64,000 nt of DNA from a virus. Taxonomy: Duplodnaviria > Heunggongvirae > Uroviricota > Caudoviricetes. Positions within the stretch are counted from its first letter, which is position 1; every line of letters starts with the position of its first letter. Below are positions 41,683 through 47,600 of this stretch, piece by piece. The DNA lies in IMG/VR virus record IMGVR_UViG_2718218360_000008; one strand, 5' to 3'. Made by a program: the position numbers.

Positions 41683-44600
41683 TGAATTTTATAACCCAGA
41701 ACGGGCGTCCAGAAATGACGCCTTTTTTATTGCAGAAAAGCGAGAGGTAATTATGCGTAAACTTTATGCCGCCATTTTGTCCGCAGCCATCTGTCTGGCC
41801 GTATCCGGCGCGCCTGCATGGGCGTCTGAGCAGCAGGCCACGCTGAGCGCGGGGTATCTTCATGCCCGGACGAGCGCTCCCGGTAGCGATAATCTTAACG
41901 GGATTAACGTGAAATACCGTTATGAGTTTACGGACACACTGGGGCTGGTGACGTCATTCAGCTATGCAGGAGACAGGAATCGCCAGCTTACCCGTTACAG
42001 CGATACCCGCTGGCATGAAGATTCCGTGCGTAACCGCTGGTTCAGCGTGATGGCGGGGCCCTCTGTGCGCGTGAATGAATGGTTCAGCGCGTATGCGATG
42101 GCGGGCGTGGCTTACAGCCGTGTGTCGACTTTCTCCGGGGATTATCTCCGCGTAACTGACAACAAGGGGAAAACGCACGATGTGCTGACCGGAAGTGATG
42201 ACGGTCGCCACAGCAACACGTCTCTGGCGTGGGGAGCTGGCGTGCAGTTTAACCCGACCGAATCCGTGGCCATTGATATTGCTTATGAAGGCTCCGGCAG
42301 TGGCGACTGGCGCACTGACGGTTTCATCGTGGGTGTCGGTTATAAGTTCTGATTAGCCAGGTAACACAGTGTTATGACAGCCCGCCGGTTCAGGCGGGCT
42401 TTTTTGTGGGGTGAATATGGCAGTAAAGATTTCAGGTGTGCTGAAAGACGGCACAGGAAAACCGGTAGAGAACTGCACCATTCAACTGAAAGCCAGACGT
42501 AACAGCGCCACGGTGGTGGTGAACACGGTGGCCTCTGAAAATCCGGATGAAGCCGGTCGTTACAGCATGGACGTTGAGTACGGTCAGTACAGCGTCATTC
42601 TGTTGGTGGAAGGATTCCCGCCGTCACATGCCGGGACCATCACCGTGTATGAAGATTCCCGACCCGGTACGCTGAATGATTTTCTCGGTGCCATGACGGA
42701 GGATGACGTCCGTCCGGAGGCACTGCGTCGTTTTGAACTGATGGTGGAAGAAGCGGCGCGTCACGCTGAGGAGGCGAAGAAGAATGCCGGAGAGGCGGAG
42801 ACGTCAGCGAGGAATGCCGGCATATCAGCCAGTCAGGCAGAAGAGAGCGCGGCAAATGCTGACACTTCAGCAGGGGAGGCATCGGAGTCAGCCCGGCAGG
42901 CGGCAGAAAGTGCAGCCGCTGCAAAGCAGTCAGAGGAGGCGTCCTCGTCCTCGGCTTCTGCGGCCGCTCAAAAAGCCAGTGAGTCATCACAAAGTGCAGC
43001 AGAAGCTGAATTGTCAAGAAAGACGGCAGAAAGTGCAGCCGGTAATGCAGCCAGGGATGCAACGACCGCAACAGAAAAAGCCCGGGAGTCAGCAGAAAGC
43101 GCACAGTCAGCGGAACAAAGCAGGATAGCGGCGGAAGAAGCCGTAAACCGAATCCCCACCGTGGTGGGACCTCCCGGGCCAAAGGGGGAACAGGGGCCCG
43201 CGGGTCCTCAGGGGCCGAAGGGTGATAAGGGAGAGCGCGGTGACACCGGCCCTGTCGGGGCAACCGGCGAACGGGGACCGGCAGGTGATGCTGGTCCGGC
43301 AGGCCCGCAGGGGCCGAAAGGTGACAGGGGAGAGCGGGGAGAGACCGGTCTGACGGGAAATGCAGGTCCACAGGGTCCAAAGGGAGATACCGGTGCGGCA
43401 GGCCCGGCAGGCCCACAGGGACCGAAAGGAGAAACAGGTGCGGCTGGCCCGGTGGGGGCAACCGGACCTCAGGGACCGAAGGGCGACCCGGGGGAGACAC
43501 AAATACGGTTCCGTCTGGGGCCGGGAAACATTATTGAGACAAACAGCCATGGCTGGTTCCCGGATACAGATGGCGCACTCATCACCGGACTGACCTTTCT
43601 TGACCCCAAAGATACCACACGGGTTCAGGGTTTTTTTCAGCATTTGCAGGTCAGGTTTGGTGACGGGCCGTGGCAGGATGTTAAGGGGCTGGATGAAGTG
43701 GGCAGTGATACAGGCAGAACAGGAGAATGACATGAACGTACTAAAAAAACTTATGCAGCGTCTGTGCGGTTGCGGAAAGCATGATGACCGTGAACATGGG
43801 GAGTTACTTACAGCACAACTGCGTCTGGGACCGGCAGACATTCTGGAGTCCGATGAGAATGGCATTATCCCGGAGCAGGACAGGGTAATCACGCAGGTGG
43901 TGATACTGGATGCGGATAAAAAGCAGATACAGTGCGTGGTAAGACCGCTGCAAATCCTGCGTGCTGACGGGAGGTGGGAAAATATTGGCGGAATGAAATA
44001 GCCGACAGCTTCACAAAAACCGGAGTCCGGCTCCGGTTTTTGTTGTCATGTCCGGTGGATGTTTGTTAGGACCGCTATGGTTTATCGGCTGCCGTTCTGG
44101 CGCTGATTGCCGCAGGTGCTTCTGCGCCTGAAATCCTCGACCAGTTTCTGGATGAAAAGGAAGGTAACCACACCACGGCATACCGTGATGGTGCGGGTAT
44201 CTGGACCATCTGCCGGGCGCCATCATGGTGGATGGTAAGCCTGTATTCCTGGCATGAAGCTGTCGAAGGAAAAATGCGACCGGGTTAACGCTATCGAACG
44301 GATAAGGCGCTGGCATGGGTGGAGAAAAACATCAAAGTGCCGCTGACCGAACCCCAGAAAGCGGGGATCGCGTCATTCTGCCGTAAACATTGGTCCCGGT
44401 AAGTGTTTCCCGTCGACGTTTTACAGACGAATTAATGCAGGTGATCGAAAAGGTGCCTGCGAAGCGATTCGCTGGTGGATTAAGGACGGCGGCAGAGACT
44501 GCCGTATTCGCTCAAACAACTGCTACGGTCAGGTCTCACGGCGTGACCAGGAGAGCGCGCTGGCGTGCTGGGGAATTGACAGATAAGCAGAATATTTTGC

Positions 44601-47600
44601 TGAAAAATGCGGTTTGCTCACACGGGCGGATAACACGAAATCCTGCGAACTGGCCAAAACCTGAGTGATATAAAAGTAAAACCCCGTTTGTTAGCCAGCA
44701 GGGGGTTTTGTGTTTCCTGACTCCGGAAAAGTCAAAGGAGAAAGTGTGTTTGATTTTAGCAAACTGATTCGGAGATTGAGTGATGGCTGAAAAATTATCC
44801 ACCTGGAAGTTCATTCTTATCTGGCTGGTGTTTGTGATTATGGTCTTCCGGTTATTTCATCGGTCAGATACGCTGGTGGTGAAATGAACCGCGTACTGTC
44901 GTGGTCATCATTGCCCTGCTGGTGGCCTGTGGTGCGCTTAGTCTGGGGGCTGAATCATTACCGTGATAACGCCATCACCTACAAAGCGCAGCGCGATAAA
45001 AAAGCCAAGGAGCTGGAGCTGGCAAACGCAACCCATTACTGATATGCAGGTGCGCCAGCGCGATGTTGCTGCGCTCGATGCAAATACTCAAGGGAATTAG
45101 CTGATGCGAGAGCTGAAAATGAAACTCTGCGTGCTGATGTTGCCGCTGGTCGTAAGCGCCTGCGGATCAACGCCACCTGCTCCGGTACCGTGCGTGAAGC
45201 CACCGGCACCTCCGGCGTGGATAATGCAACCGGCCCCCGACTGGCAGACACCCGCTGAACGGGATTATTTCATCCTCAGAGAACGGTTGATGACAATGCA
45301 GAAGCAGCTGGAAGGGGCACAGGACTATATCCGCACTCAGTGCCTGAACTAAGTTTTGCGGATGCGCCGTATCGTCGCTGTATTCCCTCATTAACAGAGA
45401 CCGCAGCCCGACAGGGAGACTCCTCTGCGCGAGTGTGCGGGGATAATCAAAAACGATACACACCGGGGTTTACCGCGTTAACGGAGCGCGGCGTTGTCCC
45501 CTCATAGTCGCTGGTCCGGTGCGATGGTGGAAGAAACCGGACTACATTACAAATGATAACCATTATCATTTTGCGGGTCCTCCTGGTGGGGTGGGCCTGA
45601 ACACGGGGCGGGCGGCGCGGAAAAAGGCGCATTTTTTGATTTTTATGGCACCATCACCACCAGTGTAAGTTATTGATATATAGAAAAATAAAATTTTTAG
45701 TGTCGAATCTGGTTGTTTTTTGTTCATCACTGGTGTGTGTTTACATAATTTTCAGGGGGAGTTATGGATCGTGAATTAAAAAATCTGCATCTGAATATTT
45801 CCCAACTGGCCCGCATTATCCGGTGCTCATCGACAGACTGTTGCGGCTCGGGTAAAAAACATAAGCCCAGCCGGTGGTCATGAGAGCAATCTCAAACTGT
45901 ACCGACTGACAGATATCCTTGCCGAGCTGATGAAAGCTCCTCTGCCTGTAGATAACGAGGAAATGGATCCTCATGCGCGTAAAGCATGGTACCAGTCAGA
46001 ACGTGACCGACTGAAATTTGAGCAGGAAACTGGTCAGCTTGTGCCAGTCAGTGATGTCAGGCGGTCCTTTTCTGTCGTGGTGAAAGCGATAGTTCAGGTA
46101 CTGGAAACCTGGCCTGACCGGCTGGAGAGGGACAGGGGGTGGACCGCATCACAACTGAATGAAGTACAGATTGTGGTTGATGAGATCCGCGACACACTGG
46201 AAAAGGCAGTCATTGACTGTTGTGATGAGGCCGATATGTGAATCAGGTGAACGAGAGCCATAGCCGCGCATCCGATATCTGGCGCGAAGTGGCCTCGCTG
46301 TTTCGCCCACCCAGCCGGTTACCAGTAGCGGAAGCCATCAGGCGTTATATGCGGGTTCCACGGGGAGCCAATACTTCCGGTCCGTGGGAGTCATCGCTGA
46401 CGCCCTATATGATTGACCCCATTAATACATTATCAGCCCGTGAATATGACGCGGTGGTGTTTGTGGGACCTGCGCGAACCGGGAAAACCGAAGGGCTGAT
46501 TGATGGCTGGATTGTGTACGGCATCATCTGTGATCCGGCGGATATGCTGGTGGTGCAGATGACTGAGACGAAGGCGCGTGAGCATTCCAGAACGCGTCTT
46601 TCCAGGACGTTTCGCCACAGTCCGGAGGTCAGCAAGCGCCTCAGTCCTTCCCGTAATGACAACAACGTCCACGATAAAATGTTTCTTGACGGCTCCTTCC
46701 TGAAGATTGGCTGGCCGTCGATCACCGTCTTTTCCTCTTCGGATTACCGTCGTGTGGCGCTGACGGATTATGACCGTTTCCCTGAAAACGTGGACGGGGA
46801 AGGGGATGCCTTCACGCTGGCCTCAAAGCGTACCACCACCTTTATGTCCTCGGGGATGACCCTGGTCGAGAGTTCACCGGGGCGGGATATCACCGATACC
46901 AAATGGCGTTGTGGTGGCGCACATGAGGCACCGCCAACAACGGGTATCCTGTCACTGTATAACCGGGGAGACCGCCGCCGGTGGTACTGGCCGTGTCCGC
47001 ACTGCGGGGAATATTTTCAGCCGGTGATGGATAACATGACCGGATACCGGAATAACCCGGATTTTGTGGCTGCCGGTCAGGCTGCCCGTCTGATGTGTCC
47101 GCATTGTCGCGGGCTGATTGCCCCTGAGCAGAAACGCGAACTGAATAACCAGGGGATCTGGCTTCGTGAAGGTGAACGGGCGGCGGCGGACGGCAGTATC
47201 ACCGGAACGCCACGAAACTCCCGGATTGCGTCATTTGGATGGAGGGGCCAGCTGCGGCGTTTCAGACCTGGGAACAACTGATTTTTAAACTGCTGGCGGC
47301 AGAAGAAGAGTATGAGCGAACCGGCAGTGAAGAGACCCTGAAAGCGGTGGTGAACACCGATATCGGACGACCCTATCTGCCCCGTTCAGCCACGGAACAG
47401 CGTAAAAGTGAACTGCTTGAACAGCGTGCCGAGCCGTTTCCCCGGCGATCTGTGCCGGATGGTGTGCGTTTTATTGAGGCAACGGTTGACGTACAGGGCG
47501 GTAAAAATCGCCGTTTTGTTGTGCAGATCACCGGATACGGAGAGCAGGGGGAACGCTGGATTGTTGATCGCTACAACATCCGGCATTCACTGCGCTGCAG

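Follow-up and report, generated by a model that had tools for sequence, protein, structure and literature searches.

The virus record IMGVR_UViG_2718218360_000008 of the IMG/VR database was analysed over a stretch of 64,000 nucleotides (positions 1–64000, hereafter the window), which represents a lambdoid prophage cluster of Escherichia coli O157:H7. On sequence comparison, the locus belongs to the ydfJ prophage cluster of an O157:H7 strain, with a resident lambdoid prophage (prophage 1) that is Sp11-like, integrase-deficient and extends from ~0.8 kb; the name Sp11 follows the Sakai nomenclature. At 44071|44072, the DNA that follows a set of tail fibre genes is joined directly to a truncated R endolysin gene (R'), followed by lysis, packaging, head and tail genes of a second phage. 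In our reading, which we hold with about even confidence, this joint marks a real internal deletion in a second phage that was inserted into the resident prophage by homologous recombination and is nested in it. According to the original prediction, prophage 1 ends at this joint; this part of it was not borne out, as the DNA between ~40.8 and 44.07 kb shares its phage type with the second prophage (prophage 2), and the two copies of the tail gene J in the window are reciprocal mosaics.

Structure of the joint and phage type of its flanks

The position of the joint was defined by nucleotide alignments with both parents. The left parent reads GTTAGGAATGTTCAG at this point, with nleG7 coming next in the prophage of strain E2863, and the right parent is the R gene, ATGAGCAGGAAACTCCGCTATGG. 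Homology to the DNA downstream of the tail fibre genes stops at 44068–44071, whereas homology to lambdoid lysozyme genes begins at 44072, which corresponds to nucleotide (nt) 15 of R. The gene is therefore present without its first 14 nt, i.e., it has no start codon and the first 4–5 codons are gone; the sequence directly upstream of 44072 is tail-fibre DNA. The microhomology at the joint amounts to 0–5 nt (at most AGGA(A)), and no direct repeat flanking the joint was found. In the comparison with repeat and module boundaries, which serves as a test of an assembly-graph artefact, the breakpoints lie 3 nt and ~12–19 nt away from the nearest homology boundaries. On the right side, holin-level homology extends to a point 5 nt upstream of the R start codon, R-allele homology sets in at nt 27, and the joint is at nt 15.

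The order of features given in the original prediction, a terminator followed by an R endolysin and a frameshifted Rz/Rz1, was confirmed by alignments, open reading frames (ORFs) and the hairpin. The RNA fold of this hairpin has a dG of −28.4 kcal/mol (z −4.96); a scan for consensus terminators returned no match, although the strong hairpin is present at 44013–44043. The second element was also said to have no integrase, immunity or replication genes, and this holds: according to the ORF list and the alignments, none of its Q, integrase, repressor/immunity and replication genes is found at the joint, and the whole left arm is gone. In addition, tblastn detected no holin homologue in the region 43500–48600, and no promoter-like site was found in 43600–46300. 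The reported lack of an attachment site at the joint is likewise correct. The core of the ydfJ-type attachment site (att), CATCTATGAATTATGGATTTC, defined by a three-way comparison with the junctions of the O157:H7 strain 9000, was searched for in the whole window with up to 3 mismatches and gave one match (0 expected), which lies at 762–782.

Phage type was assigned using 170 sites that separate Sp11-type sequences (FRIK2455/TW14359) from E2863-type sequences, together with difference counts per 500-nt bin. J copy 1 is Sp11-type at 85 of the 86 informative sites up to position 40760, and the sequence is E2863-type from ~40.8–41.7 kb to 44071. J copy 2 shows the reverse pattern, being E2863-type to 61305 and Sp11-type at all 82 sites from 61449 to the window end. 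The two copies stand at a constant offset of 22,363 nt and share an identical stretch of ~1.7 kb, so that they form the reciprocal hybrids by which a Campbell-type insertion is recognised. The module at ~40.8–44.07 kb differs from the E2863 prophage at 0–2 positions per 500 nt versus 13–19 for O157 Sp11-type sequences, and its part at 42300–44071 is 100% identical to the E2863 prophage of serotype O111:H8, with no O157 genome exceeding 98.5% identity to it. On the other side of the joint, the region 53.5–61 kb has 0–1 differences per 500 nt to E2863. Since the tail-fibre module, the R' allele and the region 53.5–61 kb are all of the same phage type, the joint lies inside the DNA of one phage.

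The extent of the loss was estimated from strain 9000, a UK O157:H7 isolate with tandem prophages A and B at ydfJ (NZ_CP018252.2, 2786693–2878617). Positions 1–43311 of the window match prophage A at 99.4% identity, and positions 45362–64000 match the late region of prophage B at 99.0%. Both prophages are complete, and between the tail fibre of A and R of B there are three nleG genes, a dinI-like gene, the att core, int, xis, exo, and the immunity, replication, Q and holin genes. Relative to this array, ~23.7 kb are missing from the window. A deletion in the array of strain 9000 would not by itself give the window, however: its J copies are reciprocally mosaic, and its tail-fibre allele is a different one, of the E2863 type.

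The simplest history that we infer from these alignments comprises two events, a crossover in J and a subsequent deletion. The second phage, which is lambdoid and long-tailed and resembles the O111:H8 E2863 prfC prophage and VT1-Sakai in its late module, would have entered as a circle by a Campbell-type single crossover in the ~1.7-kb identical stretch of J, and not beside the resident prophage at att. The second-phage DNA would then be circularly permuted, running from ~40.8 kb to ~61.4 kb, and the resident's own lom, tail fibre, nleG, dinI and attR would be expected beyond 64 kb, where the right end of prophage 1 probably lies. A later illegitimate deletion inside the inserted phage, with 0–5 nt of microhomology, would have fused the spacer, at a point 28 nt beyond the hairpin of the terminator, with nt 15 of the phage's own R. 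Such a deletion would remove ~23.7 kb with the effector genes, dinI, attP, int/xis, and the recombination, immunity, replication, Q and holin genes. The leftover would be an inert block of late genes with no promoter, antiterminator, holin or R start codon of its own, and its expression is predicted only via read-through from the late operon of the resident prophage.

Weight of the alternatives

Several observations weigh against a genuine deletion in a nested phage. The joint is absent from 5,426 complete E. coli genomes searched by megablast with junction-spanning queries of 3 kb and 451 nt, and exact 30–40-mers across it gave no match in IMG/VR, the GTDB species representatives or the JGI metagenomes. 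The 1.2 kb to the right of the joint contain ~15 indels/kb, which points to very low read support at this very place and would not be expected of a real junction with normal coverage. Indel density is ~0.16/kb in resident-type DNA vs. ~0.88/kb in second-phage DNA; this ~5-fold excess may reflect low coverage, a subpopulation or a contaminant. The window stops at 64000 inside J copy 2, short of the predicted distal genes of the resident prophage, and the closest O157 relatives of that prophage (BB24-1 and FRIK2455) have no second phage altogether. Finally, gene conversion between tandem prophages could also account for the Sp11-type stretch common to the two J copies. As for the matches that covered 100% of the junction query, they were rejected as pieces of one prophage in circularly permuted order and not true junction matches.

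Some of these observations would also be expected of an assembly artefact, an alternative that deserves serious attention but that we consider rather unlikely. In this case, the adjacency 44071|44072 would be absent from the chromosome, and the real genome would have either a complete second prophage or none at this place. Loop or dead-end closure in the assembly graph, gap-filling with few uncorrected long or Sanger reads, or threading of a low-coverage or contaminant phage contig through the J repeat could each produce it, and a cycle hung on the main path at the J repeat node would yield exactly such a layout. The joint is unique to one assembly, the worst sequence of the window begins right after it, and the second-phage DNA is generally poorer in quality than the resident prophage. 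In addition, the tail-fibre module that matches O111:H8 prophages completely has no O157 counterpart above 98.5%, and the source chromosome is unusually large (5.77 Mb) and absent from the RefSeq complete-genome set searched. However, neither breakpoint is located at a repeat boundary, and the flanks are non-homologous, so that collapse of a repeat cannot make the joint. The left flank is free of errors to its last base, and the reciprocal J mosaic lies in clean sequence of high quality. Both flanks are of one phage type, which is rare in random chimeras; a random chimeric read would rarely join the two ends of the same 22-kb phage segment, and a real joint is thereby favoured.

Classical tandem lysogeny appears improbable as the source of the arrangement. 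It would involve an int-mediated insertion into the att site on the right-hand side of the Sp11-like prophage, then a deletion from the terminator of prophage 1 to R of prophage 2, and gene conversions that changed lom and the tail fibre of prophage 1 to the second-phage allele and the 3' part of J of prophage 2 to the Sp11 allele. Complete arrays of that kind are present at ydfJ in UK O157:H7 strains and have been described (PMC8112680). Homogenisation of J is also frequent between prophages in one host, as in strain 9000 with its two identical J proteins. Nevertheless, such a course takes at least four events versus two, and one crossover explains the reciprocal mosaic more simply. The conversion tract in prophage 1 must moreover end no more than 3 nt from the deletion breakpoint, and the GGA past the Sp11/E2863 homology boundary is E2863-specific, though it possibly comes from R. 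Neither an att core at the border nor an adjacent integrase of the second element is present, whereas strain 9000 has int at the equivalent border.

A more far-reaching version of the nested insertion, to which we attach little credence, is that of a single prophage with two different complete morphogenesis modules in series, which would have arisen when a superinfecting lambdoid phage lysogenised by RecA-type recombination into J of the integrase-dead resident, without the use of its own integrase, and a deletion across attP then took away all its regulatory and killing functions. In this version, the second cos, terminase, head and tail genes would be expressed only by Q-dependent read-through of the terminator at 44013–44043. 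If this were true, such a double late operon could be a reservoir for the exchange of head, tail and host-range modules, or of helper functions, in the pool of defective O157 prophages.

Indels in the lysis and packaging genes

To the right of the joint, R' is split over three frames, and tblastn covers amino acids (aa) 6–177 of the endolysin in two of them; its C-terminal fragment has a Pfam match to Phage_lysozyme (PF00959, 32 bits). The Rz/Rz1 region contains two ORFs of 52 aa (44884–45042) and 82 aa (45104–45352), the second consisting of the Rz1 lipoprotein fused to the Rz C-terminus and matching the Pfam families Rz1 (48.8 bits) and Phage_lysis (40.8 bits). The region is thus recognisable as a remnant of a lambdoid R-Rz-Rz1 cassette by its lysozyme and Rz/Rz1; a holin, a Q-dependent late promoter and intact frames are lacking. 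Comparison of the window with itself revealed the expected paralogy with the lysis genes of prophage 1, with 93% identity between 19229–19829 and 44085–44682 and 91% between 20757–21181 and 44916–45342.

R had been called degenerate and Rz/Rz1 frameshifted. The frames are indeed broken, but the differences from intact alleles are single-nucleotide indels, substitutions being almost absent, and real decay does not follow from them. The indel excess of the patch at 44216–45253 over the window background corresponds to a Poisson P of about 1e-23. R' (44072–44586) differs from the E2863 allele by 5 single-base deletions and no substitution, and the Rz region differs from the allele of the TW14359 prophage at 1.757 Mb by ~14 indel events and 4 substitutions. 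Among three natural alleles of the same 1.28-kb segment, pairwise differences amount to 28–78 substitutions and 0–1 indels, whereas the R-Rz copy of the window shows 16–18 gap openings against each of them.

Errors of a similar kind are scattered over the window. Isolated one-base homopolymer errors, mostly deletions, occur in sequence that is otherwise 100% identical (e.g., at 701, 3604, 3626, 3757, 19804, 40822, 41272, 45690 and 45810, and also at 47234, 48254, 52438, 55133, 59012, 59907, 60325 and 61195), and positions 1–18340 differ from TW14359 by 1 substitution and 4 homopolymer-length changes. These errors frameshift TerL (47234, 48254), DUF1441 (45810), J (40822, 41272) and other genes. 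Exact copies of the frameshift-derived peptides were found in a single O157:H7 chromosome of 5,770,602 bp among ~15 billion proteins (ANW40097.1, A9L45_11570; WP_249525075.1). The ratio of indels to substitutions, at least 4:1, is the reverse of that seen in natural decay and typical of a weakly supported long-read consensus; therefore, judging from the sequence, most of the frameshifts that affect R, Rz/Rz1, DUF1441, TerL and J are probably consensus errors of the source assembly. The truncation joint is the only robust structural feature.

Genuine pseudogene decay, in which the indels in R, Rz/Rz1, DUF1441 and TerL would be real and gained after the loss of the regulatory arm, is very improbable: selection may be relaxed in an element that is not inducible, and the 82-aa fusion recurs verbatim in an independent NCTC assembly, but natural alleles have 28–78 substitutions per 0–1 indel, R' shows five deletions and no substitution versus an extant allele, indel density falls 17-fold at 45254 despite equal relaxation downstream, homopolymer errors of the same type are seen in parts of the resident prophage that otherwise match O157 genomes at 100%, and the NCTC sequence itself stems from a long-read assembly and contains additional indels.

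The 82-aa Rz1-Rz fusion ORF arises from an additional C at 45251–45253. Its verbatim counterpart (STI66379.1) belongs to a different prophage in an unrelated NCTC long-read assembly, in which Rz has extra indels too. The shared fusion is either a recurrent systematic error at the CC(C) site or a real polymorphism.

Two other explanations of the patch were considered and rejected. A mix of paralogous alleles does not fit, since the natural alleles are collinear with 0–1 indels and the patch fits single alleles apart from the indels. Mutagenesis associated with double-strand break repair, as a source of clustered indels, is quantitatively implausible.

Relation to known prophages and features of the locus

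In O157:H7, clusters of 2–4 lambdoid prophages at ydfJ have been reported, in which some prophages are integrase-deficient and prophages integrate into prophages via att sites (Nakamura et al. 2021, PMC8112680). The window represents the same locus with the same integrase-deficient, Sp11-like resident as these clusters (Sakai Sp11-Sp12 region; PPydfJ), and it likewise contains packed lambdoid prophages with a dinI-like gene and an 18–21-bp att core at their borders. In contrast to the published clusters, which are explained by att-mediated tandem integration or by integration into attB copies carried on prophages, the window shows no att at the joint, an apparent entry via J homology and the loss of the left arm.

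The late module of the second phage is shared, with 98–99% identity, by the E2863 prfC prophage, VT1-Sakai (Sp15), Stx2 12E129 and long-tailed lambdoid phages of the CP-1639 type. In these phages it consists of a class II holin-R-Rz cassette, DUF1441, TerL, portal, a ClpP-MCP fusion (protease and major capsid protein), a lambda-like tail and a tail fibre with collagen repeats. Phages of the E2863/VT1-Sakai type are complete, some are inducible, and they have int, immunity genes, Q and a holin, whereas the copy in the window appears as a circularly permuted and internally deleted remnant. The tail-fibre and tail modules at 41700–44071 and 53500–61300 are identical or nearly identical to the prfC prophage of O111:H8 strains (E2863, 7-58 72A and others), while matches in complete O157 genomes do not rise above 98.5%. 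This identity suggests either very recent phage exchange with this O157:H7 lineage or contaminating DNA.

Internal deletions are a familiar feature of defective lambdoid prophages, such as Qin, Rac and DLP12 of E. coli K-12. In the Sp11 homologue of TW14359, the genes from R through the capsid genes are missing; as in the window, essential modules were removed and the scar is a non-att deletion with low microhomology. This homologue has its own internal deletion at 2092628–2092945, where ydfR is joined to the major capsid gene; therefore, deletions have occurred independently in the same prophage across strains. Compared with such defective prophages, the deletion in the window differs in spanning the attP side of a phage that seemingly lies inside another prophage.

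Taken as a whole, the joint appears to be a deletion scar of an ordinary kind in a prophage that is defective and probably nested, represented in an error-prone assembly, and it would be slightly unusual only in the entry via tail-gene homology. If it is real, it would provide a further example of the remodelling of O157:H7 clusters by homologous recombination between co-resident lambdoid prophages and a subsequent illegitimate deletion, and would show a phage entering a prophage via tail-gene homology and not att. Its significance beyond bookkeeping is small, and the practical lesson concerns data quality: since most of the apparent pseudogenes in the window (R, Rz/Rz1, DUF1441, TerL and J) are probably long-read consensus errors, the intactness or decay of prophages should not be scored from this record without resequencing. 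The features of the window are listed in Table 1.

Table 1. Features of the window at the left border of prophage 1 and on both sides of the joint.
Feature	Coordinates	Strand	Description
att core, ydfJ-type	762–782	+	Sole copy in the window; left border of prophage 1, adjoining the dinI-like gene of the preceding prophage remnant
Truncated integrase fused to recE fragment	820–2597	−	100% identical to O157:H7 genomes, where annotated as partial integrase and partial RecE
J copy 1, stretch identical to copy 2 (61449–63123)	39086–40760	+	Probable zone of the homologous crossover; 0 differences per 500-nt bin
J 3' end, lom, tail fibre and tail-fibre C-terminal gene (Pfam phage_tail_N, Collagen, Phage_fiber_C)	40805–44071	+	E2863/prophage 2 phage type
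lom	41753–42352	+	E2863/prophage 2 phage type
Tail fibre with collagen repeats	42411–43730	+	Pfam phage_tail_N, Collagen
Tail-fibre C-terminal gene	43732–44001	+	E2863/prophage 2 phage type
Intrinsic-terminator-like hairpin	44013–44043	+	Inverted repeat with 13-bp stem, 5-nt loop and U-run; 3' of the tail-fibre genes
Illegitimate joint, ...GTTAGGA|CCGCTATGG...	44068–44075	+	Nucleotide alignments of both parents
R' endolysin	44072–44586	+	From nt 15 on, 97–99% identical to annotated lysozyme genes at the nucleotide level
Low-quality patch	44216–45253	+	18–19 one-base indels (~15/kb) and at most 4 substitutions vs. best natural alleles
Rz with embedded Rz1	44884–45352	+	Broken by indels; 98% identical to genes annotated as "lysis protein"
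Non-coding spacer between Rz and packaging genes	45353–45763	+	Collinear with intact relatives; putative cos by position
DUF1441, small-terminase position	45764–46241	+	Protein 100% identical to relatives; split by 1-nt insertion at ~45810
TerL	46238–48359	+	Three frames; homopolymer deletions at 47234 (T4 to T3) and 48254 (C4 to C3)
Portal, ClpP-protease/major-capsid fusion, head-tail and tail genes to the 5' part of J	48568–61305	+	Second phage, E2863/VT1-Sakai-like
J copy 2, 3' part	61449–64000	+	Back to Sp11 type; 100% identical to TW14359 Sp11 J from 62000

The first 3 kb of the window contain an IS256 remnant, a dinI-like gene, the fusion of a truncated integrase with a recE fragment, and dicB. 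This part is 100% identical to many O157:H7 chromosomes, in which the prophage is located at ydfJ. In the integrase-recE fusion, the integrase is without its N-terminus and xis is deleted, and the scar is fully conserved in many O157:H7 genomes; therefore, the resident prophage cannot be excised on its own. The dinI-like gene and the att core at 386–782 form a unit that recurs at each prophage border of the ydfJ cluster and marks the right end of each element; strain 9000 has three copies of it and TW14359 has two.

Two phage-borne transfer RNA genes are located at 14966–15218, downstream of a Q-region gene. ARAGORN assigned them to tRNA-Met(CAT) and tRNA-Arg(TCT), while the CAT gene is called tRNA-Ile by RefSeq in TW14359 and strain 9000. 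At the boundary between the tail-assembly genes and the 5' part of J in prophage 1 (36700–38200), the sequence differs from strain 9000 by 45–48 substitutions/kb as well as by allelic indels; this divergent patch is a typical mosaic allele replacement, unlike the error-type indels.

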